A DNA stretch of 64,000 nt from an uncultured Candidatus Saccharibacteria bacterium (GCA_947304395.1 CAMZBA010000002.1:48593-112592), one strand, 5' to 3'. Shown: positions 16,418 through 63,217, counted from the stretch's first letter. A program made the numbers and translations. Notes: generated by a model from the letters alone, not told the origin.

Positions 16418-19400
16418 GTGGAAAATAAGAAATGTGTAAATAACACTAAAAACAAATTTTACGGCATCACCATAATTGTTTTGGCTGTCTGCGCTACTAT
16501 ATTACTACAAAACCCCGTATCCGCCGCCTGCAGATCGTATGACGCAAAAAAAGATAAGTATGTCGGAAATTCAGAACTATGTTTAAAAACAATGCCAAAC
16601 AATGAGCAAATTAACGAATGGAATTTAGATAACGTAACTTCGACAGAAGTCATTCTAGATAGAAATGCCGTAGCGATCACTAAAGCCGCGATATCATACG
16701 ACGAAGAGGCTAAAGATGAATACGAAGTCGTGTCTTTCGATACTTACAATGTTCTATCCACAGTAAGTGGAAATAATAAAAAGTCCATCAGATATAAAAC
16801 TGCACTTAAAAAAAGCGACACTCTTTATGAACTTCCCGGAGAAATATACCTTAAATATAAAAACGCCGCAAGATCCACTTCGGGCGAAAGATATGATATG
16901 AAAATCACGATCAAAAACATTAAAGTAAAGGCGGGAGCAGATAGGAAAAAAGGCATCCCAATCGTCTGGGGTAGTGATGAAATACTTAAATTCGGAGCTT
17001 TTAGTTATAATGGCGACGGTAATGGCGGCTATCACGGGATAAAATACACTATTGTCGTGCAATTATACGTATCGGGAACAAATTTTAAAACACACATACC
17101 GAGCGGAAATAAAATGCTATGGGGATTCGACGATGTTGATGTGCCCGACAAATTTGCGGATGAAAAACAATACAGAGATTGGAGTGATGGTAAAATTACA
17201 AAAACTAGACACTGGGCCGAGCATGTAGAAATCCCAAGCGATGGTTACAATGGCGCTTTTTATATATCATCTGACAGTAATCTATCTATAGATAAGAACA
17301 AGGATGGTACAGTCCACATATATAATTCCGCTAAATACGGCGAGACTGGTAAAGAAGATGTTTTATATTTAGTCGATCCTAATGGTTTTCATTATATATG
17401 GCAAGGCACCGATTGCGCTACTGTAGCAGCCGCCATCGCAGGTACAATTTATTTTGGGCATAGTGAAATATACAGCGGGAATACTCTACTTAGTCAAAAC
17501 GGAACCGTAACCGTACATAGCAACTCAAAATCTATTAGATTTAGACACTATATCGAACGTAATAACGAAGGCCCACAAACCGACAATGAACGGTATTATG
17601 TAGCAAGTGGCACGTACGCTCCCCCAGCAAAAGGTTCAGCGACATCACCAAAAAGCTATACATCAGAACGAAGCAAGACGAAGGAAGTCTATACCACCGA
17701 TGACAAAGATAATCCTAAAGATATAGCCATCAGCCCAGGTCAATCGTTTAATGTTTGGCAAACATTATATTATGAAGCTTCAAACACAACAAACGTATTA
17801 GGAAGAAACGTCGATATAACATGCGACATTAATAAGACCGAGGTGCAAGGTACTGCCTGTATTAAACTCTATCGCCCACCAGCAACATTTACCGCAACAG
17901 TTACGGCAAACGCAAAACTTAACGGTAACAATTTCGTAGAACCAAGCAACAACAGCAACAAGGTTACTACCAGTGACGGAAGTTTCTCTATACAATTCGG
18001 CGGCAAAATCAAACGCATTCTAACCGAAAACGATTCCGAAAAAGACGCCGGCGGTACAGTAGCTACAGAATTCGCAACATTCCAATCAATTGGAAACGCT
18101 AGTTCAAACAATATGGTTGCCAATACACGAAATCCTGAAGGAAATGACACCATATCGACTAACGCACTTTCGGTTGACGGTACGCATAATATTTTCACGA
18201 GCAAGAACGTCTACAACGGCACCCTCAAATATGGCGAAGAGAGAACAGTATGTGGCGTCGTACATTACCGTAATGTCATCGATCAACGATTAAGCGGTGG
18301 ATATTCAAGTACTTCCGCTTACAAATGCGTCAAAGTCTACCGCGACCCGAAACCCTGCGACATCAATACGGGCATCGAGTTTGGTATCCATAATGGTGAG
18401 AACCTTGGCCGCATCGGTGCCGTCAACTACAGCGTAAGCGGAAACGACAACTTCTCTTATACACCTAACGACGCAGCATCCTACCTAAACGCCTCCGATC
18501 ACACTCAAAGGGTTACGGTCTGGGCACGCCCTGGCGATTCTATTAAATTCGAACACAGTGGATGTGCGGGTGCTCAATATGCCATTAATAACAATTCTAG
18601 CCTCTCGAACGTAACCAGCTACAACTCTACCGGTAGGCTCAGACACTACACGGCATCGTCATGGTCAGTGAACCCTGCAGACGTAAACGTCAACGACTAC
18701 TTGTTTGGCGAAAAGCTTTCGGCAAAAAGCCAAGACTCACCATTAAAATACAGTTCGTCTAAGACCTGGAGTAGCACCGACACTGGTTCTTCCTTCCTGG
18801 TTGGCGACAATGTTGAGTTAAGCGAACAATCCCCATCGGACACTACTAATTCTACCTATGCACGCGATACGTATAATAACAAGAGCTATTCCTGTCTTAA
18901 CCTAAACGAAAACGCACCGTTCCAAAGCAACCATTACCAAATCGCTGGCGTAAATAATACTAACGACACCTCCTGCCATGCCTACTCAAAGACTACCGTT
19001 GCTAGCGATGCTGGCCACATTATTACGCAACGTCTAAACTGGAATTACCTCAAGGTGGTCAACGACAGTCTTAGCTTAAGCGGAAGAAACACAAAACTTA
19101 CAGCCGAAGCTAACGTCATGATCCCATACAACTACAATGCTCAGCCATATATTAGTGGTCCAAATGCTAACGTTGTCTATCGCGGTTCTAGCATGGGCGT
19201 TAACTTAAAGGTCTTTGTTACTCCACGCAAGAATGGTGCTTTTGGCGCGGGAGACACCGAACAAGATAAGGCGCTTAATACTTATGCCACCATTACTAAA
19301 CCGACCACGGTTACCGCTCAATACTATTACCGCTCTAGAAACAACTTCAACTCCATTTTTGGCCGAACCACAATTAACGGCGCAGCTTATTCTGGCCGCC

Positions 19401-25007: not shown

Positions 25008-25604
25008 ATGGCACAAATATTGTTGTATAATCATAAGCAAGAAAAGGCGAGGAAAATGCAACAAAACTATATAAATTTGGCCGGAACGACGAGCCAAAAA
25101 CCGAAAAATAGCTTTATTAAGCCAATCATTATATCCGCAATCATCATTGCAATCATGATAATCGCCGCCATCATCGCTGTTAATGTTGTACCTAAAATGC
25201 TCATCGACGACGCGCAGAATCAGAGCGACATCGTCAATCATGCCGACTACTACACGACCATGCAAAAGATTTTTACCAAGGTTTGTGGTCGAGAAATCGT
25301 CATCAGCACTCTCAGAGACGAGCTAAAGGATATCTCCAACGAAATCGACATCGAGGACTACAATAGCTATGGTCGAATCGTGCTAGCAGGAACCAAAGAA
25401 TACATTCAATATCTGTCCGTCAACGAAGAGTCCGATTCTCCCGACACGGCCGTAGATTTCGTCTACCATGAGCCAATCCAAAATACCGACACCTTCATTC
25501 TCCAATCAGGCGAAAAAACTTTTCAGCATTTTAACGGAAGTTTAACTAATGAGTTCGAAACCCTCGACGAAGCCGTCATGGACCACCAACTATTCCAAAA
25601 GTAA
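25008..25604 (+). CDS. small single-pass membrane protein, family S
   Basis: TM helix (IIISAIIIAIMIIAAIIAV). C-terminus reads VDFVYHEPIQNTDTFILQSGEKTFQHFNGSLTNEFETLDEAVMDHQ, very close to the product of 8074..8598. Confidence 0.75.
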   Translation: MAQILLYNHKQEKARKMQQNYINLAGTTSQKPKNSFIKPIIISAIIIAIMIIAAIIAVNVVPKMLIDDAQNQSDIVNHADYYTTMQKIFTKVCGREIVISTLRDELKDISNEIDIEDYNSYGRIVLAGTKEYIQYLSVNEESDSPDTAVDFVYHEPIQNTDTFILQSGEKTFQHFNGSLTNEFETLDEAVMDHQLFQK

Positions 25605-25605
25605 T

Positions 25606-28600
25606 ATGTCAGACCAAGAATCCTACCAACAACCAAAGAAATCCTCGCAAAACGAGTGGAATACACTAGAGTTGCAGAAAGATACTGCGGCAGAGCTAAA
25701 GCAAAAAATTGCCACCGCCGCCCAGATAGAGATACCAGAGGGCGTCGCCGACAAAGAAGCCTATCGTCGCTCTGAAGACTATTATGCAGACATGTGCCAA
25801 TCGATTTTTGCGGCCGCATTCGATAATCCGCCCGAAGGCCTATCCGAAGACGACATCAAAACAGCCACTATCGACGTGCTTATCGACGAATCGCAAAAGT
25901 TTATCGCAGATGGCGGCAAGATGTCCGGCGATTTGGACGAGATATTATTCCCAGACCAAGACCTTACGGAAGAAGGATCTGCCATGTTAGCTCACTACGA
26001 AGACAGTTTGAAGGTTTTACGCGAAGCTAGACTAAAACAATACGCCAACGAATCGATGCGAGCTTTCCAAAACTTGGCTCAAAGGTTTGACGAAGCAAGA
26101 AAAAACGGAACCCAAATGCCAACTTTCCGCTTTTCGGAACCCCTAAGACGACTAAAACAGCTCAAGCAATACGATACCGATAACACTTCAGGTCTCGACT
26201 CAGTCTTCAATTACGTCCAAAAAAATATCATACCAAATTTCTACCCAAACCGAGCTGTGCCGATAAATGGTCGGCGTTCTCGACTACGAAGACACTCTTC
26301 GTTGAGAGATAGTTCCTATAGCCATTTGCGGATAAATCGCAGGTTTTATATGAACAAATTGCTCGATTTCGCCGAAGGAATGCCAGAACTCCTCGACGAC
26401 GCCCCCGAAAACGTACAAAGTTGTATAAGATTTTTGAACAACGCTAAAAACGAATTAAGCAATCAGGATTATAATTCAATTGAAAGAATTGCCGCACTAG
26501 GTCTCTATGGCAAAGGCGGCGAGGCAACGTTGTTTGACGAAAACGGCAAACCAACCGAAGAGTTCCAGATCGCCATCATGCTAGATTTTGCAACAACTGG
26601 CACTATTTCCCGCCGTAGTAACAGGCCCGACGTCCAAGATTTTATAAATAGCCGCAAAGGGCTGTGCGAAAAATATCTCAACGAAAAACAGCTGAAAGTT
26701 ATACAGGATCTGGCCGAGCAAAACTTAGAAAAACCACTTTGTGACGAAATTTTAGCCTCCTTATATCTCGAGAATGATCCCGCCATTTATGCCGCAAAGC
26801 TTAAGGCTGCCAATAAAATTAACAACGCGGACTATTTCAGCACTGATGCAATAGAGATATTGGCACAAATTAATACGCCGGAAGACGCCGATTTGCCAAT
26901 TGAAGAACTGAAAAAACGCGCCGAAAGCAAACTTTTTCACATAGGCTACCAGCGCGAGCACTTTCCAGACACAAAGCCATACGACAGGATGCATATCTAC
27001 AAAGCTTACGAAGAACTAATAAAGAGATTTGACAAGCAGACTATCAAAGGCCCAGACGGTTATTTCAACTACGACACTATCGGGATAAACAGACGGATTT
27101 TTGAACAGTATCTCCTGACGGCCATCGATGGTGAAAGAAAATTCCACCAGGATGACCTAGATGCATTCATTGGCCAGCTAGGAGCAATCGAGCAAATCTA
27201 CAACGACGCCAACATCGACGTAGTCAGACGCACGCAAATTCTCAGGCAAATTACACAAAGCAACGAGCCAATCAATAATAATTCCGCGCATAATACTGAA
27301 TGCCTATATAAAAACGCCAAGAACTTCCTAACCGCCTACAATAGAGAATACGACCCATTTGGAGACGACAGTGTTTTTACGACCTTTTTGGGCTTAGAAG
27401 AAACTGGTAAATATGAAATATCAGAAGAGTCCATCAATGGCATTGAAGACCTAATCAATCAAATAACCTATTCAAATTCAAACAGCCTCCAGCGTTTAAT
27501 GGCGCCAATCATCTCAGAGTTTCTGCGCAGCGGCAACTATAACATTGGCGAAGACGGCAAATTATCCTTCGATTACACTAGTGCCAAAGAGAAGCTCGAA
27601 AAAATCGAGACAATTTTCCTACGCAACAATCTCCCACCAGTGGCAAAGAATTTCTTAGTCTTCAAAACCATCCACCCAATGGACCAATTCAAACGTGACT
27701 TCGTTGAAGGCGCCGAATATAAATTATCACCAACCCTTGCGCAGGCAGAGGTACAAGGTCCATTTGGAAGTTACGGCATAATTTTGCGCAACCTCATCAA
27801 AAGTTCACTCGAGTCCAACGATATCACCATGCGCAAGTATCTCGAAAACATGCGTGATGGTCAAAAAATCTTGGACAACATCAAAAGTAACGAAACAACC
27901 TATGACGAACTAGACGAGGCATCGCAACAAACAATCTCAAACTTAATCAAACATATCGCCGCCCTCTACAACCAGACCGAGAGCGGGCAAGAAAACCCCG
28001 TCGATGCCAGCCTCGCACCAACCAAAGAAAACATCCAAACACTCGAGCAAACGCTCCGCGTCAGGGAGCGCGATACTATCGCAGACCGCGCCGTACGCTA
28101 TTTTGGCTTCACGGCTGGCCTACATGGCGTAGAAGACGCCTTGCGCAGGATGGACCAAAACAGGGAAGCTGCCGACCGGCGCAATCGCGAAACCGCCAAA
28201 CATCCACTGACTATCCACAGGGGCGACCTAATCAAAAACGTCAACGGCAAATACCTCGACAATATTCTAATGTATGGCTCAAACTCCAAGGAGTTCCTCG
28301 GCGAAGATGCCGACACTGACCAAACAGCCCTCGATACCGATGTTACGATGCGCCTAGGCGAAGATGCAGCTATCCAAGATTGTACCGAAATTCAGGACAA
28401 CCCCAATGGCAACTACGGCTATGTATGGTTTGTAATAGAAAACACGCCAGACAGATTTAGAACAACACGTCAAGACGATGGGCACCCCGGCGAAGTAGAA
28501 GATGTAAAGTTGTCAGACAACCGCCTAGAGCTATTCCAAACGGGCGTATTGGGCGAAAGTCACTACGGCATCGGCGTCGGCTTCGGTTCAGAACATATTA

Positions 28601-43712: not shown

Positions 43713-45371
43713 TTAAAAGTATTCACCAATGAAAGATGCAAATTTTCTATAAAAATCATCCATATCGTCAATTCCTGAATAAAACCCAACTCTCTCCGCA
43801 AAAGTATCCGCATCACTTCCATGAATATCGTCCCCTGACAAAATATATTTATATCTACCAGATGGAGCCCACACTCGTTCATTTATTTTATTATATCCCC
43901 TTGTAGCAAAGAAAATGGCAATCAACAGCTCGGCTGAAATAAATTTATCTTCATAAGAGTCTGCCAAAAACAGCACATCGTCCAATATTGGCTGTAGTTT
44001 TTTGAATACGTATTCATTTAATGGATATCTATAATTCTTATCTGGAAAAAATACACCGAATTCTCCGTAATGCTTAATTACTAGATTTACAACACTGTCA
44101 ATAATCGCATTTCTACCACCACTATACTTCTGCTTAAAGCTCAACTTAAATACTGATTCTATCAAATCATAATTCATCGATTCCATAGCGCATATAATAA
44201 TTGCTAAATACAACACATAAATTACAAAAGCATTTCCATACTTGTTTACCCCCTGAGATTCCAAGCATGGATGTATATTAGATATTATCTTTAAAATTAT
44301 TTTTTTATGATTATCGACGTAATAAAAAGACAAAAGAGAAGCTATGGTAATTAGCCCTTCTGCATATTTAAAATAGCTATCAATATATTCACGAAACCCG
44401 TCTTTCGTGCTGGGAAAGGCCAAATCTTTAGTATTGTTAATAAATAGAACTAGCTGTTCGTTGACGAACCTATCGAGCGCAATGAATTTGTTTCTATCTG
44501 AAATACAAGACGATACCTCTTGTATCAGGGAACATCTGTCAGACAATAATACCTTTGGCGCTTCAAACCTTTCAACCATTATGTCATTACTTACGTCACC
44601 ATCATCATCCCTAAGCGAATCTAAATTCATAATAAGATCCCCTTCGCCTTCCATAGTCCCACCATTAGGCGTTTGTCTTGATGCGGGATCGTTCCCCACA
44701 GCAGATACCATATAATTAATGACAGACGAAGCACTAATAACACCGTTGCCAGTAATGGCTTCTCCCTTCAGAGCTTTTATTAAATATTCTGTAAATATAG
44801 AATGATTAGTCCTTGGCGAACCATCAGAGACAGACTGTTCGCTTCGGCCAGCGGTTAAAACCTGAATAGCCCTTCTCGATATTAAGTCTCTAAGAAATCT
44901 GCTTGAAATGCCTCTATTACCGCGGAGTAGGGCTAAACCTCCATAGCAACAATCCATAATAAAGAAAATATGTTTAGCTGGGATTAACCTCGCCGTCTCA
45001 ACTAATTCGTTAAATCTTACTAAAGAATTAATATTAGATTCTGTACCATCATATGGGACAATAAAGCCGACATCCATTGAGTTAAAAGATCTTGTTACTC
45101 CATGCCCTGCAAAGAACACAACAAGCGAATCGTTCTTTCCAGTATTATCAATAAAACCACAGAGCGCATCCTTAATTTTCGCAGATGTAGCGAAGTTATT
45201 TGTTAGTAAACGAATATTCTCCTTCCTATATCCCAAATCTTTAATTAGAACATTCTTAAGCTCTTTTGCGTCGTTTACGGCATTAGATAATTCGTTTGGA
45301 TGATATTTATATTTATCTATGCCAATTATTAGAGCATGCCTCTCTTCATATTTGTCGCTATAGTAGTCCAT
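43713..45371 (-). CDS. caspase-like (peptidase C14) protease with about 300-aa uncharacterised C-terminal domain
   Basis: HALIIGIDKY, VVFFAGHGV (catalytic His) and FFIMDCCYGG (catalytic Cys) occur at the expected spacing. The C-terminal half has no recognisable motif. Confidence 0.75.
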   Translation of the reverse strand: MDYYSDKYEERHALIIGIDKYKYHPNELSNAVNDAKELKNVLIKDLGYRKENIRLLTNNFATSAKIKDALCGFIDNTGKNDSLVVFFAGHGVTRSFNSMDVGFIVPYDGTESNINSLVRFNELVETARLIPAKHIFFIMDCCYGGLALLRGNRGISSRFLRDLISRRAIQVLTAGRSEQSVSDGSPRTNHSIFTEYLIKALKGEAITGNGVISASSVINYMVSAVGNDPASRQTPNGGTMEGEGDLIMNLDSLRDDDGDVSNDIMVERFEAPKVLLSDRCSLIQEVSSCISDRNKFIALDRFVNEQLVLFINNTKDLAFPSTKDGFREYIDSYFKYAEGLITIASLLSFYYVDNHKKIILKIISNIHPCLESQGVNKYGNAFVIYVLYLAIIICAMESMNYDLIESVFKLSFKQKYSGGRNAIIDSVVNLVIKHYGEFGVFFPDKNYRYPLNEYVFKKLQPILDDVLFLADSYEDKFISAELLIAIFFATRGYNKINERVWAPSGRYKYILSGDDIHGSDADTFAERVGFYSGIDDMDDFYRKFASFIGEYF

Positions 45372-52771: not shown

Positions 52772-53383
52772 TCACTCTCCGGGCTTTATTACAATCGCAT
52801 TGCGACGCCGCTTAACCTTCAAATCTACATCGTGCCAGTACCGATCGTTCAGACGCCCCTCCGCAAGGTATTCGTCGTACCGATCGCTGTCGATGGAAGC
52901 GGCCTCAAACGCCTCTTTATGTAACTCATCGCGAACAAACCACCGAAGCACATTCACGCCGTCTTTGGTGACCACATAGATAGAGTACTCTTTGTACGTA
53001 GTATATGTGCAAACCATATCGCCGTTGCGCACACCCAACATCACAATATCTAAAAAATCACTCCGTATGATACTACGAGTTTTCGCAGCCTGGCAATTCG
53101 GCTCCACAATCCGACAGTAGTCGAGGTCCTCGTCGTAATCCTTCATTAGCACGAGATGCGTTTCTCTCGAACGAGGACGTTTGGAAGTAATTATCGGAAG
53201 ACCAGCCAACTTGGACTCAGACGTGAATCTCTGTATTATAGTCAGATCTTCTCGCCATCCATACAGTCGCCCTCCGACACCTCCGTCCACTAACGCTACG
53301 ACGGTTTCGCCAATACCAAATACTGCAAACGCCTGGCCGTCAAGGGTCTTCACCTTTAGCTGTATGCCAAAATAAACTCCCAT
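52772..53383 (-). CDS. MG[VI]YF-family protein (member 1, MGVYFG type)
   Basis: Starts MGVYFG. Shares GW.(E/D)DL, (Y/H)LVL..(D)Y, AKTRS(I/V)(I/V)R and NGDMVC blocks with the other members. GGAGG SD present. Confidence 0.7.
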   Translation of the reverse strand: MGVYFGIQLKVKTLDGQAFAVFGIGETVVALVDGGVGGRLYGWREDLTIIQRFTSESKLAGLPIITSKRPRSRETHLVLMKDYDEDLDYCRIVEPNCQAAKTRSIIRSDFLDIVMLGVRNGDMVCTYTTYKEYSIYVVTKDGVNVLRWFVRDELHKEAFEAASIDSDRYDEYLAEGRLNDRYWHDVDLKVKRRRNAIVIKPGE

Positions 53384-53412
53384 TTTCTCACCTCCTCTTG
53401 GAACGGGAATTA

Positions 53413-53452
53413 TTAATGTGCATTAGAGTAACTTTATATTGTGATTATATCA
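53413..53452 (-). promoter_or_regulatory. extended -10 promoter plus TAATG-N2-CATTA inverted repeat upstream of 52772..53383
   Basis: The minus strand reads TGaTATAAT (53452-53444), then cacaatataaagttactctaatgcacattaa. The block is conserved with 56496-56528. Confidence 0.45.
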
Positions 53453-53488
53453 CAAATAGTCAAATAAGTCAATACTATCGTATTAACT

Positions 53489-53923
53489 CAGCACCTTTGC
53501 AACATTTACGACGGAGTCATAAACCTTAAGCCTAATAATCTGGCAGTTCATTCAGATGCGTGCGTGGAGTCGAAGAGATAGTTGGTATCCGCCAAGAACA
53601 GACAGACAGGCGGAAGCTAGATATGGGGTTATCTTTTTGTCTTACTTGGTTTTCTAATGCAATATGAGAGTTTAGAGCTAACCATTTACGTTTCCATCTC
53701 CAGATAGTTGTACGGCTCACACCAAATCTATCCGCAACTATTTGAACGGATAATTCATCTATGAAAAGCAATTTCATTGCTTTTCCTCTCGCTTTTTCTA
53801 GGCTAGGGTTGGTAGAATAACTCATAGGACGGGTCTCCTTTATTTAAGTGGTATTAAACAAAGTATATGACTCGTCCTTTTTTGTTGGCTATTGCCAGCT
53901 AGCTATGTTGCAAAGGTGCTGAA
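53489..53923 (-). mobile_element. degenerate IS/MITE-like element bounded by perfect 18-bp inverted repeats
   Basis: TCAGCACCTTTGCAACAT at 53489-53506 and its exact reverse complement at 53906-53923 flank a truncated transposase HTH ORF. Confidence 0.6.
53532..53825 (-). pseudogene. transposase N-terminal HTH fragment (no catalytic domain)
   Basis: LSVQIVADRFGVSRTTIWRWKRKW is typical of IS3/IS481/IS630-type HTH leaders. The ORF ends after 97 aa with no DDE region. Confidence 0.55.
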
Positions 53924-53937
53924 CGGTCTACGCCCAT

Positions 53938-53966
53938 TAAAAATTCCCGCACTTCCGTGCGGGAAT
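53938..53966 (-). terminator. rho-independent terminator of the four-gene MG[VI]YF operon
   Basis: Stem ttcccgcac / gtgcgggaa with loop ttcc, and a T-run on the minus strand. Confidence 0.65.
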
Positions 53967-53991
53967 AACCATCACTCTAAAACAAAAAGGT

Positions 53992-54615
53992 TCAATGCTT
54001 CCTCTTACGCCGCTTTCTCTTCGGTTCGAGACTCATATCGTCCCAGTGCTCATAAATGCAGCCGTTGTATCTGAAATCTAGATACTCCCCCAGGCCGCTT
54101 GCCTGAAAAGCCTGATTATCTTTTAATTTATCGAGCAAAGAATAATAACTACTTTGCACGAACCCGATGCGCCCCTCCAGCGCAAAGAACAGGCTGCACG
54201 CATGTTGAGGGTTAATCACGCAAACCATGTTCTTATTGCGAAGTTCTACGATGGCAATATCGCTAGCCACCGCCTCATTGTCCGCATAGAGGTCAACATT
54301 CTCCTCTCTGCGCACAACGCTTCGAGTTTTTGCATGTTGCCCTCTGAGCTCTATGACGGAATCTCGCTTCAGAAAACCATAAAAGTAGTCTTTCTTCAGA
54401 ACAACATACATTTCATTCTCATCCGACGGCTTCAGCAAGAGCAGAGAACTACGCGATACACCAAACGGCGTAAGTGGCAACTGCTCAAAGATCAAGCCGT
54501 CACACCATCCGTTAAGCTCACCTTCCAGAGAAGGGTCCGCCTTCGCAATGACCCGACCCCCAGAGTAAACAAGCCCATCCTTCACGTGGCACGGCGTACC
54601 GAAATAAACACCCAT
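53992..54615 (-). CDS. MG[VI]YF-family protein (member 2, MGVYFG type)
   Basis: Start re-called to MGVYFG (ATG 54615) after GAGGGGGGTG. Family blocks GWCDGL, YVVLKKDY, AKTRSVVR and KNMVCV are present, with a basic tail KRKRRKRKH. Confidence 0.7.
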   Translation of the reverse strand: MGVYFGTPCHVKDGLVYSGGRVIAKADPSLEGELNGWCDGLIFEQLPLTPFGVSRSSLLLLKPSDENEMYVVLKKDYFYGFLKRDSVIELRGQHAKTRSVVRREENVDLYADNEAVASDIAIVELRNKNMVCVINPQHACSLFFALEGRIGFVQSSYYSLLDKLKDNQAFQASGLGEYLDFRYNGCIYEHWDDMSLEPKRKRRKRKH

Positions 54616-54626
54616 TTTCACCCCCC

Positions 54627-55166
54627 TCATTCAGATAAAAGTGGCCAGAGGACACTATCGTCTCCCGTAGACAGTTTGTTCAGACATGGCGAATACCGCC
54701 ACTCTTTTAGACGATCAAGTCTACTCTCGACAAATACGGAGCCGTCATCCGCTACGACGTATACCACCCTTCGCCGACTATAATCGGTAACGCATAACAT
54801 ATCCCCCCTGCATACCTTCAGGACCGCAACGTCATATACACCCTCGCAGCCCCTAATTCCTGGCGCGTAATACAGGACTTTTATTGACTCGATACCCGTA
54901 CGCGTTGTTATTATTTCTTCATCGCACTCATTGCCTTTACCATGAAGAGTCGCAAGAACCAGGTAGGTGTCATCACTTTCCTGGCGGGAAATCAGCAGAC
55001 GTCCATCGGGGTTGACCTGCAGAGATAAGTCCGGCCGCCACCGAACCAATGGTTCTTTGGCGAAAGTCTTGTCCGCCAGCAGGATGGGGCGACCATGAAA
55101 ATAGAGCCCAATCCCACAACCAGACCTATCGCCTACGGTTAACGGAACATCGAAATAAATACCCAT
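54627..55166 (-). CDS. MG[VI]YF-family protein (member 3, MGIYFDVP type, 179 aa)
   Basis: Start re-called to ATG 55166 after AAGGAG. It is close to identical to member 5, including a 96-bp identical DNA tract at 54945-55040. Confidence 0.75.
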   Translation of the reverse strand: MGIYFDVPLTVGDRSGCGIGLYFHGRPILLADKTFAKEPLVRWRPDLSLQVNPDGRLLISRQESDDTYLVLATLHGKGNECDEEIITTRTGIESIKVLYYAPGIRGCEGVYDVAVLKVCRGDMLCVTDYSRRRVVYVVADDGSVFVESRLDRLKEWRYSPCLNKLSTGDDSVLWPLLSE

Positions 55167-55206
55167 CTTTTCATCTCCTTTTTTAGTGTAGAGTTGTCGA
55201 TAAACA

Positions 55207-55914
55207 TTACCATTCCTTTTTAGGATAAACAGGATACCAGTATCTAGGACCAAATGAATTCAAGGAATTCTTCACTTTCTCGCTCAGCGGCATGGTCCTG
55301 TCACTGAGTACGCGCTCACGCAAGCCGTCATATGTTTCAGAAGTAAAAGACTCCACGCCATTTTCCGAAACCAAATAGAGCGTCAAATTGTTTGTCTCAA
55401 TACAGCAAAACATATCGTCCTTTTGAGCTTCAAATACCAAAACGTCTCCAAAAACGTTTTTACATAAAGGAATGCGTCCATAAGATCGAATCATCTCGGA
55501 CTGCTGGTCTTTCGGCTTCGTGATCATGCTAGGCGCAAGCCCGTCTCGCAGGCGTCTCGCCAAGACTAAATAAGTATAGTCTTTTTGAGAATGCGTCAGC
55601 TTCGGTAACGGAATGCCAGATGGAAAATCAACAAGGTCAGGTGAGAATTCAAGAGAAAACTTAATAAGCCGCGAATCATCTGCTTCAATTAAGCCACGCT
55701 CATTGACGTGCCATCCACCACGAACCACGCACGGTACTGGTATAATAGGCCTGTACTTTTTAGGCGGCGAATAATCGATCGATAAGTCGCTGTGCCATCC
55801 CTCAAACTCACTACATTCCGAGAATTGGCCATCTAGCGCAAAGATGTCCCGCTCGCCCAATTTTACCGTATCATATTCAGTTTTCTGCAGCGCTACGCCA
55901 AAATAAACCCCCAT
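55207..55914 (-). CDS. MG[VI]YF-family protein (member 4, MGVYFG type, 235 aa)
   Basis: Starts MGVYFG. Family blocks GWHSDL, TYLVLARRL and KDDMFCC are present, with an extra insertion of about 50 aa. Confidence 0.7.
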   Translation of the reverse strand: MGVYFGVALQKTEYDTVKLGERDIFALDGQFSECSEFEGWHSDLSIDYSPPKKYRPIIPVPCVVRGGWHVNERGLIEADDSRLIKFSLEFSPDLVDFPSGIPLPKLTHSQKDYTYLVLARRLRDGLAPSMITKPKDQQSEMIRSYGRIPLCKNVFGDVLVFEAQKDDMFCCIETNNLTLYLVSENGVESFTSETYDGLRERVLSDRTMPLSEKVKNSLNSFGPRYWYPVYPKKEW

Positions 55915-55926
55915 CTTTTCTCCCCC

Positions 55927-56466
55927 TCATTCAGATAAAATTGGCCAAAGGACACTATCGTCTTCCGTGGACAGTTTGTTCAGATATGGCGAATGTCGCC
56001 ACTCACTCAGACGATCAGGTCTACTCTCGACAAATACGGAGCCGTCATCCGCTACGATGTATACCATCCTTCGCCAACCATAATCAGTAACACACAACAA
56101 ATCCCCCCTGCATACCTTCAGGACCGTAACGTCATATACGCCCTCGCAGGCCCTAATTCCTTTCGCGGAATACAGGGCTTTTATTGATTTACTATGCGCA
56201 TGCGTCGTGTATATTCTTTCATCGCGCTCATAACCTTTACCATAAAGAGTCGCAAGAACCAGGTAGGTGTCATCACTTTCCTGGCGGGAAATCAGCAGAC
56301 GTCCATCGGGGTTGACCTGCAGAGATAAGTCCGGCCGCCATCGAGCCAACGACTCTTCGGCGAAAGTCTTATCCGCCAGCAGAATAGGGGAACCATGAAA
56401 ATAGAACTCCACGCCACAACCAGGCCTGTCGCCTACAGTTAACGGAACATCGAAATAAATACCCAT
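55927..56466 (-). CDS. MG[VI]YF-family protein (member 5, MGIYFDVP type, 179 aa)
   Basis: First gene of the minus-strand operon. Same length as member 3 and offset from it by exactly 1,300 bp. Confidence 0.75.
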   Translation of the reverse strand: MGIYFDVPLTVGDRPGCGVEFYFHGSPILLADKTFAEESLARWRPDLSLQVNPDGRLLISRQESDDTYLVLATLYGKGYERDERIYTTHAHSKSIKALYSAKGIRACEGVYDVTVLKVCRGDLLCVTDYGWRRMVYIVADDGSVFVESRPDRLSEWRHSPYLNKLSTEDDSVLWPILSE

Positions 56467-56550: not shown

Positions 56551-56670
56551 GAAACACAGCCCATTGACATAAACGCATATATATCGCATAATATCCACAT
56601 GTCCGTACGGGACTGTTCTTTTTTGACACGATTACTGCACAAAGATTCTAGCCACGAAAGGGGGAACCAT

Positions 56671-57321
56671 ATGGCTAAAAAGGACTTATTAAACGTTGCT
56701 GTCGTCTGGACTGAAGATTTAGCGTGTCACGACGCACAGCTGGCCGCCGCTATCCATGAATGCGCCCGCACCATACCAGGCTGTAAATTCTATATTATCG
56801 GCACTGGCACCATTATCCGCAGCACCGAAGATGCGAACGTTGCCGTAGTTGGAAACGGCGACATTGACAGCAACGGCTTCGTAGTAGACCTGCCGTCCGT
56901 AGCTCGCAAGATTTACAACCTCAGAACCGGAGATTATCGATGCCGTTACGACGCCATCATTGTCATCACGCGGCAAAGATATGTGCGCTACTCCAGCCAT
57001 ACCAGTCCGGAGTACTACAGAAATGGCTCTGGCGTCATATCACTCGAAGGTTGGGCAGATGACGAAGTCGAAATGGTGGCATCCTTGATGTTAGAACACG
57101 TCATGGGGCACATGTTCTATCACGACGGCCTCCAAGTCCACTGCGAATGCCCGACCTGCACTATGGCCAATCTCGCAAACCACGACAGCGTCCTGAATCT
57201 GATCAAGCACAGAAGCGCCTCTGGCCTGGATCATTTCTGCCCCGAATGTCAGCGATGGATCCGCGACAGCCCCCTCTGGTCCGACCAGCCGTCAGAAGTT
57301 ATTCGCGGCGAACACTCCTAA
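56671..57321 (+). CDS. archaemetzincin (M54)-like protein, HVMGH instead of HExxH (member 1)
   Basis: Start re-called to ATG 56671 after GAAAGGGGGAA. LEHVMGHMFYHDGLQVHCECPTCTM ...(24 aa)... CPEC fits H.xxH...C-x4-C-x-M...CxxC, but the catalytic Glu position is Val. Confidence 0.55.
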   Translation: MAKKDLLNVAVVWTEDLACHDAQLAAAIHECARTIPGCKFYIIGTGTIIRSTEDANVAVVGNGDIDSNGFVVDLPSVARKIYNLRTGDYRCRYDAIIVITRQRYVRYSSHTSPEYYRNGSGVISLEGWADDEVEMVASLMLEHVMGHMFYHDGLQVHCECPTCTMANLANHDSVLNLIKHRSASGLDHFCPECQRWIRDSPLWSDQPSEVIRGEHS

Positions 57322-57333
57322 CTCCAGTAATCC

Positions 57334-57359
57334 ATACCTCGCCCACGCGAGGTATTTTT
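57334..57359 (+). terminator. rho-independent terminator
   Basis: Stem atacctcg / cgaggtat with a 6-nt loop, then TTTTT. Confidence 0.6.
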
Positions 57360-57363
57360 AAAG

Positions 57364-57391
57364 CAGAAAAATACCCCCTCGGTTGAGGGGG
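57364..57391 (-). terminator. rho-independent terminator of 57436..58017
   Basis: Stem ccccctc / gaggggg with loop ggtt, and a T-run on the minus strand. Confidence 0.6.
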
Positions 57392-57435
57392 GTGAGTGTT
57401 GGGAATTATTTCAAACTACTTAAATCATGTTCTTA

Positions 57436-58017
57436 TCAGAACGGGGAGAGAGACGAAAGATCATCGCTCAAAACTGTAAAAGCGGCATACCGCTCCGCCA
57501 GTCTTTCTTCAAGGGTTTTACGAAGACAAAGCGCCATATAGGCAAGCAGAACACTTCCGTCGATAACCCCGTCTTTGTAAATGCGCCGAACAATCGGCGG
57601 GAAAAGGGTCGCATTAATACTCTCGAGGTCGCCATCTTCCGCAATAAAACAGAGCAGAGACATAAAAATAGCCGGATCAAGATCGCCAATCGCCTGGACA
57701 AGACCATCATTTTCCCCTTTACTACCCAGGGCCACCCGGATTTCTTCGGGAATTGCATCGATATCTTTTGCCTCAATCCCCACACAAGCAACCACACATC
57801 TCAGCAACCGGACAATATCGACCTCCATAGCCAGGCGATCAATCAACTCGCTGGCCATAGCCTCGTCGAGGCTTCCACTTAAGGACACTGCCGAGGCGAA
57901 CATGAGTATAGTAGCCATCACGCCCTTGAAAGCATGACAGTCATCCATCATTGCCCGAATGGCCACAATGTCATTCTTCCGTATCGCATTCCACGCCTTT
58001 TCATCAATAGCGCTCAT
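57436..58017 (-). CDS. hypothetical all-helical protein (193 aa)
   Basis: CAGGAGGT SD 7 nt before ATG 58017. Ala/Leu/Asp-rich. No recognisable motif. Confidence 0.55.
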   Translation of the reverse strand: MSAIDEKAWNAIRKNDIVAIRAMMDDCHAFKGVMATILMFASAVSLSGSLDEAMASELIDRLAMEVDIVRLLRCVVACVGIEAKDIDAIPEEIRVALGSKGENDGLVQAIGDLDPAIFMSLLCFIAEDGDLESINATLFPPIVRRIYKDGVIDGSVLLAYMALCLRKTLEERLAERYAAFTVLSDDLSSLSPF

Positions 58018-58203
58018 TAGTAATACCTCCTGTTTAGATACTAGGTTCCCAACTGTTACCTCAAATATAACTCTACAACAATATAGTAATTTGTCAAGCG
58101 CATAAATTAGTGCGCCAGACTCAACTCAGTCGCGCTATTTGCTCAGATCGCACTCATCGTGCTCATGTTTTCCATCTGCAAGCATCCTATTTATAATTAA
58201 TGA

Positions 58204-59898
58204 ATGGCGCAAATCAACCATCGAAAGCGTGCTAATTATTGCACCAAGCCATACGAGACTAGGCGCAGAATGCCATTTTCTGGTGCCGTTATAATTGTTG
58301 CATTTTTCATTTGTAGCTTCGTGTTGCTTTCAGAAATATCCTACGGTCTTTTTAATGCCATCCGCAATATTTTCGTAGCCATCTGCCCGAAGCTCCTTAA
58401 CGCCCCAGCTATCACGAAAGGCAATTTCTATTTGGCCACTTGCGCCATCACTATTGCTGTATCCGCATATTTGTCGGCAAGGATTAAAAAGCGCATCTTT
58501 CCCGACATTATTATTCGGGATAAAAAATATATTTTGGCGCTATTCAAAGGGCGGGGGAGCAAATCGCCGCAGCCTACCCGCGCAAAGCTCATCAGCTTCA
58601 TCTATGGTAAAGGACCAATCAATCAGAAAACTCGCAACACGATATCTACCTTAATCAACGAAGGCATTACGCCCATATCGCAGTACATCGATCATAGCAG
58701 TGCGGATAACAATACCCTGTGTATCAACTCCAAGTGGGGCTCTGGCAAGACTACTGCGTTACTGATTGCCATCAACGAAAGTACCAAAGCTAGCAACCGC
58801 TACATCTACGAATCCGCATTCAAATATAGTGGCAACATTGGCGAGTTTATTAACGATATTCTCAAAACCATCAATGACGTTATGATCGAATCGTGCATCA
58901 AAAAGTCCGAGAATCTCAGCTCGCTCATAGAAAATTTTGACGGCGATCCAAAAGTCAACGTTCTAAATTACATCCTCAATTTATCGAACAACTCCAACGA
59001 TTTACTCTCTAGCGACATTATTCTCGAAATCAACCATCATTACGAACATTCCACTAGCGAAGCTGTCATTTTCGTTATTATTGACGACCTAGACAGATTA
59101 CAAGGCGAAGATGTCGTACGTGTATTATCGCTGCTTTCAATCATTAGAAACCTTTCGTTTGTCCGCCTTATTGTACCCGCGGATCTAGAAATCGTTGGCA
59201 AATCGCTTCACGCCTACGGCGTTGTAGATGCACATCGATTCATTGAAAAATATCTGCCAATCGGCCCAAGCATCGAGCTAAAAAGTGGCTACAAATATGC
59301 CGAAAAAATCATCCTCGACATGCTAGTTCGCGCCCAAAAAGGCTGGAAAAAGAATCCCGACGGCGCCTATCCTGCCTTTGCCGCCATTCTTATCGGCATG
59401 CTTGCAAAGAAAATGCGCGAGCTGACCATTAATCGCGACAATTTTCGATACAAATGGCTATGTTCCGACCCACATCAAAAAATAGCCAAACTAACTAGCC
59501 CCAGCGAAGAATTAACGCAACTATTACACTCGCCAATCGCATTATCCAGTTACGCAAATCGCACAAATAACATCTACAGCTGGAATGAAAAATTTGCCAA
59601 TTCCAAAAAATACCAACACATTATTTCCGCGCTCACTAAGAAAACCGAGTCCGATAAAGCCTCTATAAATGTTCAGGACGCATTCACGAATGACGATTAC
59701 GCCAACGTCGTAGAATCATGGGTTTTCGACTTCGTGGAAACCAACTGGGAACTACTTGGCTTTGCTATTCGCGACGTCCTAGACGAATTATCTAGTGTCA
59801 ATTACAACCAACTACCAAAAAATCCGGCCAAGCAATTTGTTTATGTATTTAACCAACTTTTCCCGGACGAAAAGCTCAAATACGTCAACACCATCTAG
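58204..59898 (+). CDS. KAP-family P-loop NTPase with N-terminal TM helices (Tmn-like)
   Basis: Two TM helices (aa ~25-50 and 75-95), Walker A SKWGSGKTTALL and Walker B VIFVIIDDLDRL, matching the PF07693 signature. Confidence 0.7.
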   Translation: MAQINHRKRANYCTKPYETRRRMPFSGAVIIVAFFICSFVLLSEISYGLFNAIRNIFVAICPKLLNAPAITKGNFYLATCAITIAVSAYLSARIKKRIFPDIIIRDKKYILALFKGRGSKSPQPTRAKLISFIYGKGPINQKTRNTISTLINEGITPISQYIDHSSADNNTLCINSKWGSGKTTALLIAINESTKASNRYIYESAFKYSGNIGEFINDILKTINDVMIESCIKKSENLSSLIENFDGDPKVNVLNYILNLSNNSNDLLSSDIILEINHHYEHSTSEAVIFVIIDDLDRLQGEDVVRVLSLLSIIRNLSFVRLIVPADLEIVGKSLHAYGVVDAHRFIEKYLPIGPSIELKSGYKYAEKIILDMLVRAQKGWKKNPDGAYPAFAAILIGMLAKKMRELTINRDNFRYKWLCSDPHQKIAKLTSPSEELTQLLHSPIALSSYANRTNNIYSWNEKFANSKKYQHIISALTKKTESDKASINVQDAFTNDDYANVVESWVFDFVETNWELLGFAIRDVLDELSSVNYNQLPKNPAKQFVYVFNQLFPDEKLKYVNTI

Positions 59899-59989
59899 CC
59901 AGAAACCGCAAATACGTTTTATAATAGGCCCAGCCTCTCTGGAGGCGGTTCGTTTCTATGTAGCTTTCGTAACTGAAAGGGGGAATAAT

Positions 59990-60625
59990 ATGCCATACGA
60001 AAGACAAAGACCCGTAACTATCGCCTGGTCCTCAGAACTCGAGCAATACAGACCCATCTTTGAGGTTGCAGTCGCCGAATGTATCGGAGTGCTTCCCGGT
60101 CTAAAGTTCTATCTCGCAGGCAACGAAGAACGTTTTTTCGACTACAAAGACGTCGATGCGAACTTACGCGATACGCTCTTCATCCGCGACACCTGGACAA
60201 TCGATGCGCGCAAAATCGCATCAGAGATCTCAAGCAACAATGAGAAATACGAGCTCGGAGAAATCGTCGTCATCTTCACGAAGCAGAAGATCTCTGGCAG
60301 CCAAGATAGCCCGTATGCCTGCTTCGATTCTCGCGCCGGAATCATTTCGCTTGAGCATTGCAACACGGAAAGAGAGCTCAAAGAAGCCGCCTCCGTCTCG
60401 CTGAGGTACATCCTGGGTTGTATTCAGGGCAAGGGAAAACTGCATTGCGACGATACTGGCTGCATCGTACAAGCTATGAGTGGCCACGAATCGATTCTGC
60501 AGTTTTACGAGGCAAACGCAGGGCGCAGCGGTTTTTGCGAAAAATGCAAACAAACTATTCGCAATGGTAGAATGTGGTGCAGCGACTCGCCATCACGCAT
60601 CATCCATGAGCGTCACTATTGTTAA
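59990..60625 (+). CDS. archaemetzincin-like protein, metal site degenerate (member 2)
   Basis: Start re-called to ATG 59990 after GAAAGGGGGAA. It is colinear with members 1 and 3, but the site reads YILGC. The motifs HCDDTGC ... CEKC are retained. Confidence 0.5.
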   Translation: MPYERQRPVTIAWSSELEQYRPIFEVAVAECIGVLPGLKFYLAGNEERFFDYKDVDANLRDTLFIRDTWTIDARKIASEISSNNEKYELGEIVVIFTKQKISGSQDSPYACFDSRAGIISLEHCNTERELKEAASVSLRYILGCIQGKGKLHCDDTGCIVQAMSGHESILQFYEANAGRSGFCEKCKQTIRNGRMWCSDSPSRIIHERHYC

Positions 60626-60631
60626 ATGTGC

Positions 60632-60661
60632 GCCTCCGCCGACACCGACGGAGGCTTTTTC
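60632..60661 (+). terminator. rho-independent terminator
   Basis: Stem gcctccg / cggaggc with a 10-nt loop, then TTTTT. Confidence 0.6.
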
Positions 60662-60683
60662 TTGCCATGATATAATAGCCTAT

Positions 60684-61685
60684 ATGAAAAAGATTCTTGT
60701 CACTGGCGGTACCGGCTTTATTGGCTCGCATACCGTCGTAGAACTATTGAATGCCGGATACGACGTCGACATTATCGATAACCTTTGCAATAGCAAAGCT
60801 TCTGTCATAGACAAAATTTCAGAAATTACCGGCAAGAAACCCACTTTCTACCAACAAGACTTATTAAATCAACCTGCACTAGACCAGCTTTTCCAAACAA
60901 ACGAGTATTATGCTGTCATGCATTTTGCCGGACTAAAATCCGTCAGCGAGTCGCAATCCAAGCCGTACGAATATCATCACAACAATATCGTTAGCACGCT
61001 CAATGTCATCAAATGTATGCTCGAGCATAAAGTAAATCGCTTGATTTTTAGCAGCTCCGCCACCGTCTATGGCACCCAGGAGTCCCCTGAATGTTTTGAA
61101 TCCATGACGACCGGACAGGGCATTACAAATCCTTACGGTCGCACTAAATACTTTATTGAAGAAATCCTCAAAGACGTCAGTGCTGGCCACCCAGAATTAT
61201 CCATCACACTTCTGCGCTACTTTAACCCCATCGGCAATCACCCCTCCGGCCTCATCGGCGAAGACCCCAACGGCATACCAAACAACATCATGCCAGTCAT
61301 CATTCGCGTCGCCCAAGGCAAAATCGCTAAACTCAAAGTCTTTGGCAACGATTATGACACTCCGGATGGCACCGGCCAACGTGATTTCATCCATGTCGTA
61401 GACCTAGCCAAGGGCCACATTGCCGCCCTCAAACATATGCAAAAAGGCGTTAATATTTACAACCTCGGCACTGGCACCGCCAACTCCGTCCTCGAACTAA
61501 TCTATAGCTTCGAGCGTATTTCTGGCCAAAAAATCCCTTACGAAATCGTCGACCGCCGCCCTGGCGACCTTGGCGCAGTTTGGGCTAATCCTGCCAAAGC
61601 GAATACCGAGCTTGGCTGGAAAACCCAGTTGACTATCGAAGACGCCATCGCAGACACTTTACAGTATCTAAAACTACATCAATAG
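60684..61685 (+). CDS. galE: UDP-glucose 4-epimerase
   Basis: MKKILVTGGTGFIGSH Rossmann motif, SSSATVYG, YGRTKYFIE (YxxxK), RYFNPIG, DGTGQRDFIHVVDLA. The track ORF start at 60480 is an upstream extension. Confidence 0.9.
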   Translation: MKKILVTGGTGFIGSHTVVELLNAGYDVDIIDNLCNSKASVIDKISEITGKKPTFYQQDLLNQPALDQLFQTNEYYAVMHFAGLKSVSESQSKPYEYHHNNIVSTLNVIKCMLEHKVNRLIFSSSATVYGTQESPECFESMTTGQGITNPYGRTKYFIEEILKDVSAGHPELSITLLRYFNPIGNHPSGLIGEDPNGIPNNIMPVIIRVAQGKIAKLKVFGNDYDTPDGTGQRDFIHVVDLAKGHIAALKHMQKGVNIYNLGTGTANSVLELIYSFERISGQKIPYEIVDRRPGDLGAVWANPAKANTELGWKTQLTIEDAIADTLQYLKLHQ

Positions 61686-61699
61686 ACATTGCGCCTTGA

Positions 61700-61728
61700 T
61701 TGACAATTCGCTCAAAAATATTCATAAT
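61700..61728 (+). promoter_or_regulatory. sigma70-type promoter
   Basis: TTGACA (61700-61705), a 17-nt spacer and CATAAT (61723-61728). Confidence 0.45.
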
Positions 61729-61803
61729 AACAAAGCTAACCATTTTTTGGCGCGCACTTTAGGAACCAAAAACTTCAGTTGTGCATTTTTCAGGAGGTGA
61801 AGA

Positions 61804-62406
61804 ATGTCAAGAAAAATCACCGTAGCCCTCATGTGGACACCCGACGTCGACGGCACTGTCGACTTCAAAGGCGCCTGCAAAGAGGTCGAAAAAGTATTCC
61901 CGGAAAAATTCGATTTTCGCTTCATTGGCACGAATGGCATCATTGATGATCGCCGCAATGCGCACGAGATCCTACGCAACGGAAACCTCTACATGAAAAG
62001 AGGTGAATGGACCATCGACAGCAGCGACGCCGTCTCGTCCTTTTCCGCTTTTTGCAATAATCGAATTTCCCGATCCGACTATTTTATCATTTTCACCAGG
62101 CAACTAATGGACTTTGAAAAAGGAGAGTCCTTCGAGTATCACTCCAGCAACATCGCCCTGATAACCCTTCGAGATGCCAGCATTACCTTTGAGCGCGACA
62201 ATCTGGCGGCTTTCAGCATCAAGCACGTCCTCGGCCATTTTCTTGGCGTAAAAGAGCACTGCGACAACGATATGTATACATGCGTCATGTCAAAGAAAGA
62301 CCGGAGCAACCCAATGAACGGCATCAACTACCCGTTATACGACGGCGCGTTATGTTACTGCGACGCCTGCTCGGCAAAGATCCGAAAGGCAATCGAGAAG
62401 TACTGA
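61804..62406 (+). CDS. archaemetzincin-like protein, HVLGH instead of HExxH (member 3)
   Basis: CAGGAGGTG SD. IKHVLGHFLGVKEHCDNDMYTCVMS ... CYCDAC is the best match of the three to the HEIGHxxGLxHC...CxM...CxxC pattern, with Glu replaced by Val. Confidence 0.55.
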   Translation: MSRKITVALMWTPDVDGTVDFKGACKEVEKVFPEKFDFRFIGTNGIIDDRRNAHEILRNGNLYMKRGEWTIDSSDAVSSFSAFCNNRISRSDYFIIFTRQLMDFEKGESFEYHSSNIALITLRDASITFERDNLAAFSIKHVLGHFLGVKEHCDNDMYTCVMSKKDRSNPMNGINYPLYDGALCYCDACSAKIRKAIEKY

Positions 62407-62432: not shown

Positions 62433-62459
62433 ACCCCGCACTCAGCTGCGGGGTTTTTC
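62433..62459 (+). terminator. rho-independent terminator
   Basis: Stem accccgca / tgcggggt with loop ctcagc, then TTTTT. Confidence 0.65.
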
Positions 62460-62647: not shown

Positions 62648-63217
62648 ATGTCTATGGCAGTAATTACCTACGCTATCACAGGAACTACACACAGGAAAAA
62701 GTCAGTCAAGAAAGCCATCAAAAAAGCGCTCGCAAAGGGCGGCCCTGGCACAGTCTTCGCCAGCACGGATCCCATGCACAGCGCCATTGTCAGTACCGCG
62801 ATTACTGACGCCATGGAAGAAATGATGGCTCCTGAGTACGAATACTGCGACGAACCTGATTGTTGCGAGATGAGCGGCGAAGAAGCGCCGGATGCCAAAA
62901 CGCCCGATGCCAAAGATCAGGAAAACACACCCGCAGACAACCCGAATCCCGCCTGCGGTGAAGCGTGCGTCGATCAGGAACCCGAAGAGGACGATGGATA
63001 TGAATACACTCCTCTCGAGTATGTCATCACGCTGACAGCAGCCCAGCGCCAGTTCCTCATGGACAAGGGTGTCTATTTCGCGGAACAGGTTATCGTCATG
63101 ATGGACGACGAAGAGCTTCTTTATGAGCTTGGTCCGCAGCGGCTCGGAATTGTCACTTCGATCATGCTCTGGCAGGAAGAAGACGACGACGTAACTTATT
63201 CCGCAGAGATCAAGTAA
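62648..63217 (+). CDS. hypothetical acidic protein (189 aa)
   Basis: AAGGAGG SD before ATG 62648. Asp/Glu-rich central region. No recognisable motif. Confidence 0.5.
   Translation: MSMAVITYAITGTTHRKKSVKKAIKKALAKGGPGTVFASTDPMHSAIVSTAITDAMEEMMAPEYEYCDEPDCCEMSGEEAPDAKTPDAKDQENTPADNPNPACGEACVDQEPEEDDGYEYTPLEYVITLTAAQRQFLMDKGVYFAEQVIVMMDDEELLYELGPQRLGIVTSIMLWQEEDDDVTYSAEIK

Follow-up and report, generated by a model that had tools for sequence, protein, structure and literature searches.

Three archaemetzincin-like paralogues without the catalytic glutamate in an envelope locus of an uncultured Candidatus Saccharibacteria bacterium

A stretch of 64,000 nucleotides from an uncultured Candidatus Saccharibacteria bacterium (GCA_947304395.1 CAMZBA010000002.1:48593-112592), called the window below, carries on its plus strand three genes, here named A, B and C, whose products resemble archaemetzincins but lack the glutamate of the HExxH metalloprotease motif. 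Gene A (56671..57321) encodes a protein of 216 amino acids (aa), gene B (59990..60625) one of 211 aa and gene C (61804..62406) one of 200 aa. An earlier note, made from the sequence alone, had described these three open reading frames (ORFs) as colinear paralogues, and BLASTP confirmed both the frames and their relationship: A and B are 25% identical (E 2e-21), A and C 25% (E 5e-11), and B and C 24% (E 1e-10). A hidden Markov model of the family, run over the entire window, recovered exactly three copies.

Each protein ends in a putative metal module. It reads HVMGHMFYHDGLQVHC-x4-C-x-M-x24-CPEC in A (57097..57249, plus strand), YILGCIQGKGKLHC-x4-C-x-V-x22-CEKC in B (60407..60547, plus strand) and HVLGHFLGVKEHC-x6-C-x-M-x23-CDAC in C (62224..62370, plus strand). 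The motifs of the active-site helix, HVMGH in A (57097-57111), YILGC in B (60407-60421) and HVLGH in C (62224-62238; HVLGHFLG…HC with its continuation), and the four cysteines of each copy were found as the note had read them. The position of the catalytic glutamate is occupied by Val in A, Ile in B and Val in C, with Val144 of A aligning on the HExxH glutamate of relatives and of the archaemetzincin AmzA. As also claimed, the histidine ligands are kept in A and C and lost in B, where Tyr and Cys stand in for two of them. The His-Cys pair of the third ligand ("HC") and the four-cysteine cluster (Cys4) are present in all three proteins. The Met-turn is CTM in A and CVM in C; B, the most degenerate copy, reads CIV and has additionally lost the methionine of the turn to Val. 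The loss of His ligands in B is recent, the B-position genes of other loci reading HVLGH, HTLGH or HALGH. A glutamate displaced from its usual place, such as the E of LEHVMGH in A, was considered as a substitute base; B has Arg and C has Lys at this position, and as only some members of the A lineage carry a Glu ahead of the first His, this candidate was dropped for the family as a whole.

Scans with Pfam, NCBIfam, PHROGs and PADLOC returned nothing useful for A, B or C, and PF07998 gave no match to any of them at E values up to 10. MEROPS M54, PF07998 and the PDB entries 2x7m, 3zvs/4axq and 3lmc served as archaemetzincin references. AlphaFold2 models were of moderate confidence (predicted local distance difference test, pLDDT, 71-77), with a pLDDT of 71.5 and a predicted template-modelling score (pTM) of 0.77 for A, and a pLDDT of 76.6 and a pTM of 0.81 for C. 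The best PDB match of both models in Foldseek was AmzA of M. kandleri (2x7m; E 1.2e-5 for A and 5.2e-6 for C), with a target template-modelling (TM) score of 0.66-0.68, and the model of A also matched AmzA of A. fulgidus (3zvs) with a TM score of 0.75. Adamalysins, ADAMs, TACE and fragilysin followed AmzA in the lists, and the only fold matches in BFVD were metzincins of giant viruses and poxviruses.

A second line of evidence came from sequence profiles. Compared with PDB sequences, the profile of the whole family reached 3lmc with an E value of 3.7e-4 and 2x7m with one of 6.2e-4, its pattern "HvlGH…HCdn.aCvM…FCeeC" aligning on "HEIGH…HCDNPGCIM…FCGKC". The C-terminal module of C, used alone as a query, retrieved nothing relevant. 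Some distant relatives of the window proteins have kept an HExxH site. Between 19 sequences without the glutamate and this HExxH group with its close relatives, hhalign gave a probability of 99.5% (E 1.8e-22) over 184 columns and placed HvxGH on HELGH. The HExxH relatives in turn matched 2x7m with E values of 0.0015-0.0025 in an alignment running across T-S-x-D-L-Y, HELGHxFG, HC…C.M and FC..C. The relative scoring best on PF07998 (P0037) obtained 23.4 bits against a cut-off of 24.4. The similarity to the M54 fold put forward in the earlier note has therefore stood, 2x7m being the top match of two models and the family profile agreeing through 3lmc and 2x7m. On the strength of sequence comparison and predicted structures, we classify A, B and C as divergent M54-like metzincins with Val or Ile at the general-base position.

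The likeness to AmzA, the best structural match of the models of A and C, extends to the order of the domains, to a similar size (160-210 aa) and to a series of elements comprising the active-site helix, the glycine, the HC pair, the C-x-M Met-turn and the CxxC that completes the Cys4 zinc finger. The residues of "HCDN..C.M" and "FC..C" align with the family profile, and T-x-(Q/E) in the strand preceding the helix aligns with "T-S-E-D-L" of AmzA. Unlike AmzA, the window proteins have Val or Ile in place of Glu, lack the M54 motif "NFxFG" together with any PF07998 match, and are bacterial (Saccharibacteria), multi-copy and fast evolving. They also differ in spacing. Between the glycine and the third His lie 1-4 extra residues, which shift this ligand accordingly: the distance from the first His to that of HC is +14 in A, +12 in B and +11 in C, compared with +10 in M54. 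Before CxxC there are 22-24 residues instead of the 17 of M54, and C has a C-x6-C. Of the proposed match to the M54 signature, motif order and the Cys4 cluster were upheld, but not the spacing. The accompanying statement that archaemetzincins are normally single-copy needs a caveat, as T. kodakarensis and humans have two each.

To what extent this pattern is shared was seen in an exhaustive profile search of 1.84 billion representatives, which yielded a family of only 28 clusters; a word-indexed protein search had returned near-orthologues only, and a broad alignment as query added almost nothing. All named members are annotated as Candidatus Saccharibacteria (e.g., P0044), and the nearest genome record, a metagenome-assembled genome of Candidatus Nanosyncoccaceae, a family within the phylum Saccharimonadota, has a protein 89% identical to A. 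The family looks specific to Saccharibacteria. The Cys4 cluster is present in 25 of 25 clusters and the methionine of the Met-turn in 19 of the 25, and the third-ligand His of HC is nearly invariant. Neither Asp nor Glu occupies the base position in any of the 21 core members, which carry V, I, T, A, L or M there. All three His are retained in 13 of these 21, while at least one is lost in the remaining eight, in forms such as YILGC, HLIGC, HVVGR, QTLAR, NAIAR, QMLAL and QVLAR. A-type and C-type orthologues still hold the His triad at only 37% and about 45% identity, respectively, an argument for a continuing importance of the second metal site in these two types. About ten A-type clusters below 50% identity lie inside one narrow bacterial clade.

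The most distant members carry HELGH or HEMGH (P0032, P0035 and P0037, the last listed together with P0048). Clearly homologous to the window proteins by hhalign, these HExxH relatives come from the same phylum and have the same Cys4 module, but differ in keeping the glutamate, in an insert of 12-17 residues between the glycine and HC, and in being single-copy genes in housekeeping contexts, where they either follow the type IV pilus ATPase or are flanked by a SpoU methylase and a KGG gene. Probably they represent the ancestral, possibly active form. P0034 shows the exact M54 spacing, H-L-Y-G-H-x2-G-x2-H-C-x4-C-x-M, with Leu for Glu. In a rough neighbour-joining tree without bootstrap, the HExxH proteins were basal and the members without the glutamate formed a nested clade that divides into groups of B, C and A type. 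A single ancestral loss of Glu, followed by paralogue expansion, fits this tree, which is only suggestive. Separately, two syntenic orthologues between the SpoU methylase and the KGG gene have altered sites: P0033 (L011 2400-3062) reads YELGH, without the first His but with the Glu kept, and in P0036 (L007 6001-6615; STIGA) the site is wholly lost. As these two decayed independently within an HExxH-type lineage, active-site loss is recurrent in the M54-like proteins of Saccharibacteria.

How a protein of this kind may function without its glutamate is illustrated by CarG of Myxococcus xanthus, an archaemetzincin homologue with HQxxH (full motif HQx2Hx2Ex2HCx4CxMx16Cx2C) that holds two zinc ions and lacks protease activity (PMC3427221, PMC8156234). 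CarG is a transcription cofactor, and its only known interaction is a protein-protein contact with CarD (PMC3427221, PMC8156234); carG is translationally coupled to carD, whose product joins a CarD_CdnL_TRCF N-terminal domain to an HMGA-like tail, and is confined to myxobacteria (PMC8156234, PMC3427221). In HExxH zincins it is the glutamate that polarises the zinc-bound water (PMC3427221), and the E183Q mutant of the archaemetzincin AMZ-tk was almost inactive (PMC4681839). Compared by description, A and C follow the principle seen in CarG, an archaemetzincin-type His/Cys motif with a substituted Glu and retained His and Cys4, but they have Val where CarG has Gln, their spacing differs, and CarG is single-copy with near-canonical spacing. 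We propose CarG as the functional model for A and C. The catalytically dead ADAMs (ADAM22, ADAM23 and ADAM11) offer a likeness of principle only, in that they also present a metzincin fold without catalytic residues; unlike the window proteins, they are eukaryotic, extracellular, disulfide-stabilised, multidomain membrane proteins. ADAM22-type pseudo-protease domains serve as receptor or binding modules, and ADAM22 structures were among the Foldseek matches of A.

Our favoured reading, which we hold to be probable though by no means certain, is that A, B and C, from a genome of Candidatus Nanosyncoccaceae, belong to a small lineage-specific family of M54-related descent whose members are non-proteolytic, zinc-stabilised binding proteins. 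The glutamate would have been lost once, ahead of the split of the paralogues, and with it the hydrolysis of peptide bonds; by analogy with CarG, the proteins may now act as zinc-stabilised protein- or peptide-binding modules. In A and C, a second zinc probably still sits in the former active site, where it could clamp a peptide or other ligand without cutting it, and B probably holds the Cys4 zinc only. The inferred binding or pseudo-enzyme role, which the earlier note had already suggested, gains strength from the loss of His in eight of the 21 core members alongside an invariant Cys4 cluster, from the E183Q mutant and from the precedent of CarG.

Several points weigh against this reading. 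The window proteins have no significant direct sequence match to M54, and a profile built from their orthologues alone stayed below threshold against PDB sequences (metzincin matches at E 0.03-1.3, with M54 itself at about 1), so that membership in M54 depends on a transitive chain and on predicted structures of moderate confidence. In individual paralogues, an acidic side chain from elsewhere might reach the metal. Moreover, a three-His site and a Met-turn under selection in A and C would also be expected of a hydrolase that is still active with an unconventional proton acceptor.

This last point leads to the improbable alternative that the proteins remain zinc hydrolases, using a zinc-bound hydroxide with another proton acceptor or acting on a non-peptide substrate. 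In its favour are the three-His site and Met-turn kept in A- and C-type orthologues at 37-45% identity, and the residue in place of the Glu, which is consistently small and β-branched (V, I or T) rather than random. Sugar-nucleotide and LytR-CpsA-Psr genes surround B and C, and galE, tagD and LytR might point to a substrate related to envelope glycopolymers or peptidoglycan. However, a carboxylate at the base position is absent from all 21 core members and a metal ligand is missing in eight, B lacks two His and the Met, and in both AMZ-tk and CarG activity is lost with the change from E to Q. Standard assays detected no activity even in bona fide AmzA proteins.

In the window, each of the three genes has signals of its own. 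A strong ribosome-binding site, GAAAGGGGG, adjoins the ATG of A; the same GAAAGGGGG serves B, and AGGAGGTG, likewise strong, stands beside the proposed ATG of C. The start Met of A is shared by orthologues at 74-89% identity. Upstream of A lies a σ70-like promoter-like site (56564..56592, plus strand; TTGACA-17-CATAAT), and the promoter-like site of C (61700..61728, plus strand; TTGACA-17-CATAAT) has hexamers identical to it. For B, a candidate site (59896..59925, plus strand; TAGCCA-18-TATAAT) agrees with the consensus in 10 of 12 positions, as a consensus match only. Together with a terminator-like hairpin followed by a T-run after the gene (62433..62454, plus strand), the promoter-like site of C suggests that this gene is a transcription unit of its own. 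No signal peptide was found in A, B or C and the first β-strand begins at residue 7 in the models of A and C, for which reason we take them to be cytoplasmic.

The genes are embedded in an order common to nine loci (the window, L001, L005, L006 and L017-L021). An array of genes for proteins starting with MG[VI]YF (MGxYF) on the minus strand is followed by A, by variable genes and then by KAP NTPase - B - galE - C - small acidic protein - glycerol-3-phosphate cytidylyltransferase - Asn synthase - LytR. The KAP-family P-loop NTPase (58204..59898, plus strand) matches PF07693 with an E value of 1.6e-15 and, partially, the PADLOC model of PifA, an abortive-infection protein (E 1.7e-7). B lies directly downstream of it in all nine loci. 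Between B and C, galE (60675..61685, plus strand; TIGR01179, E 3e-118) codes for a UDP-glucose 4-epimerase. Five MG[VI]YF paralogues (52772..56466, minus strand) are divergent from A, as they also are in L001, L005, L006, L017, L018 and L020. The context of galE, KAP NTPase and MG[VI]YF array given by the earlier note was thus confirmed by the two family matches and by mapping of the array.

The selection acting on this locus bears on a further possibility, namely that the three genes are decaying, functionless remnants of protease genes. The mean ratio of nonsynonymous to synonymous substitution rates (dN/dS) came to 0.37 in A and to 0.18 and 0.17 in B and C, respectively, against 0.08 for the KAP NTPase, 0.025 for galE and 0.04 for the cytidylyltransferase; the three genes are thus 2-15 times more relaxed than their conserved neighbours. 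Catalytic residues have degenerated, most of all in B, and one C-type copy (P0014) is truncated or frameshifted, as would be expected of remnants. But the frames of A, B and C are intact in nine of nine loci, and their dN/dS of 0.17-0.37, clearly below 1, points to purifying selection; they are thus not pseudogenes. The Cys4 cluster is invariant over 25 clusters, promoter and ribosome-binding site are conserved, and the paralogues have persisted from a split so old that their identity is now only about 25%. Decay without function, very improbable in our estimate, was rejected on dN/dS and conservation.

The genes nevertheless diverge far faster than their flanks. Relative to the window, L006 has a galE 91%, a KAP NTPase 77% and one MGxYF gene (MG4) 85% identical, while its A is 37% and its B genes are 35-37% identical. 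The B genes of L001 and L021 share 43% identity with that of the window, beside a KAP NTPase at 95-97%, and among close loci in general B ranges from 43 to 91% where KAP is 95-97% identical. Among close A orthologues, variable positions are scattered along the entire protein and form no obvious hypervariable patch. Depending on the strain, the slot between KAP and galE holds a B-type gene that is either 85-91% or 43% identical to that of the window, as a comparison of 59990-60625 with L001 4076-4714, L021 1284-1904 and L006 15777-16391 and 19023-19661 revealed. L006 carries both B types, with a 451-aa gene between them. The difference in the slot looks like differential retention of old B-type paralogues rather than simple divergence, and it is to the differential retention of two such paralogues that part of the uneven divergence of B is due.

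Upstream of the three genes, a 552-aa protein (43713-45371, minus strand) has an N-terminal caspase domain (PF00656, E 7e-19) and matches the PADLOC model "caspase" as well as PDC-S65, a candidate defence system; a defence-like island is thereby suggested in this part of the window. A, B and C could provide the specificity, sensor or regulator subunits for a conflict system (anti-phage or host interface) peculiar to Saccharibacteria, together with the KAP NTPase and possibly the MGxYF proteins, the dead site acting as a trap for a foreign or host peptide. The invariable position of B after the KAP NTPase, the partial PifA match of the latter, the nearby caspase/PDC-S65-like gene, the divergence of the paralogues relative to the flanks in L006, L001 and L021 and the roughly ten A-type clusters below 50% identity in a narrow clade would all fit. 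We nonetheless consider it unlikely, though less so than the other alternatives: PADLOC and PHROG gave no match for A, B or C, C has no relative on viral contigs, dN/dS stays below 1 throughout without site-level positive selection having been shown, and part of the apparent hypervariability of B is differential retention, as both old paralogues occur in L006. Each gene has its own promoter-like site, and the locus is otherwise one of envelope glycans. A more pointed version, to which we assign a somewhat smaller chance, would make the three to four fast-diverging paralogues "substrate-trap" recognition subunits of an undescribed, Saccharibacteria-specific conflict or host-interface system built on a conserved membrane KAP NTPase, always followed by B, and on the MGxYF array, always divergent from A, with the dead site turned into a rapidly evolving peptide sensor. 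For the binding proteins of our favoured reading, variable partners are suggested by the fixed positions next to the KAP NTPase, the MGxYF array and envelope sugar-nucleotide genes, combined with fast divergence; conflict-related, host-interface or envelope-regulation proteins are candidates.

The intergenic region between A and the MGxYF array, about 200 bp long, is conserved and has back-to-back promoter-like sites in every locus. That of the array (56550-56523, minus strand) is divergent and faces that of A, and both hexamers upstream of A are unchanged in four loci, including the distant L006. A regulator and its target are classically laid out in this way, and the three proteins could accordingly be transcription cofactors like CarG, binding zinc but not DNA, recruited by a partner associated with RNA polymerase, with A regulating the MGxYF array. 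CarG, the one characterised archaemetzincin homologue without the glutamate, does work in this manner. Yet carG is coupled to carD and restricted to myxobacteria, and no PF02559 (CarD/CdnL) protein was detected among the immediate neighbours scanned (the 193-aa reverse-strand protein, the KAP NTPase, the 189-aa acidic protein and the MGxYF proteins). For B and C there is no divergent target of this kind, and the likeness to CarG is one by description. This role seems unlikely to us, ranking below the two conflict-related proposals and above an active hydrolase.

That an archaemetzincin without its glutamate can be used non-catalytically is already known in principle from CarG. What is new here is an apparently Saccharibacteria-restricted family missed by Pfam, NCBIfam, PHROGs and PADLOC, its three to four paralogues at fixed positions in an envelope locus and diverging fast relative to the flanks, and a stepwise series of decaying active sites, HExxH relatives being still extant in this phylum. 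This series, running from the HExxH relatives over P0034, with Leu for Glu at M54 spacing, and H-V-x-G-H to QxLAR and YILGC, should be useful for studying the origins of pseudo-enzymes. Literature searches turned up no paper that connects Saccharibacteria with metzincins. These bacteria are ultra-small epibionts whose genomes are strongly reduced, and the retention in such genomes of three to four paralogues of an apparently dead protease at fixed positions, each with its own promoter, implies a real and probably lineage-specific function. The family adds an annotatable metzincin or M54-like fold to the "dark matter" of the Candidate Phyla Radiation. If it is non-catalytic, it would be the second archaemetzincin scaffold, after myxobacterial CarG, to be independently recruited in this way; should the link to KAP or MGxYF prove functional, a new module for conflict or host interaction could come to light. 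As long as a partner of A, B and C is not known, the practical impact is moderate.

Some further features of the window were recorded. The MG[VI]YF proteins are about 180-235 aa long and show invariant G, Y, F, W, L, VL and W positions in their alignment; they have no match in Pfam, PHROG or PADLOC, and their family profile found no relative among PDB sequences. An identity of 81% between two of the genes (55927-56466 and 54627-55166) indicates that they were duplicated recently, and further arrays lie at L005 7882-9797 and L006 4210-9819. Across the locus, fast-evolving small genes alternate with slow housekeeping genes. Among the former, the acidic 189-aa protein (62648-63217, plus strand) has no family match, a dN/dS of 0.40 and an internal "KGVYF" that recalls the N-termini of the MGxYF proteins, and the 193-aa protein (57436-58017, minus strand) likewise has no family match and a dN/dS of 0.39.

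Elsewhere, the window contains a GH114 enzyme and a glycan cluster. A phage origin was rejected, there being no megablast match in the phage collection and the gene content being that of a bacterial envelope. Two proteins combine an N-terminus like that of type IV secretion system (T4SS) pilins with Big_2 domains, and two giant ORFs of 1510 and 1410 aa have no Pfam match (6320-8077, 9989-11908, 16361-20893 and 25549-29781, plus strand, for the four together); all of them are probably cell-surface proteins of the epibiont.

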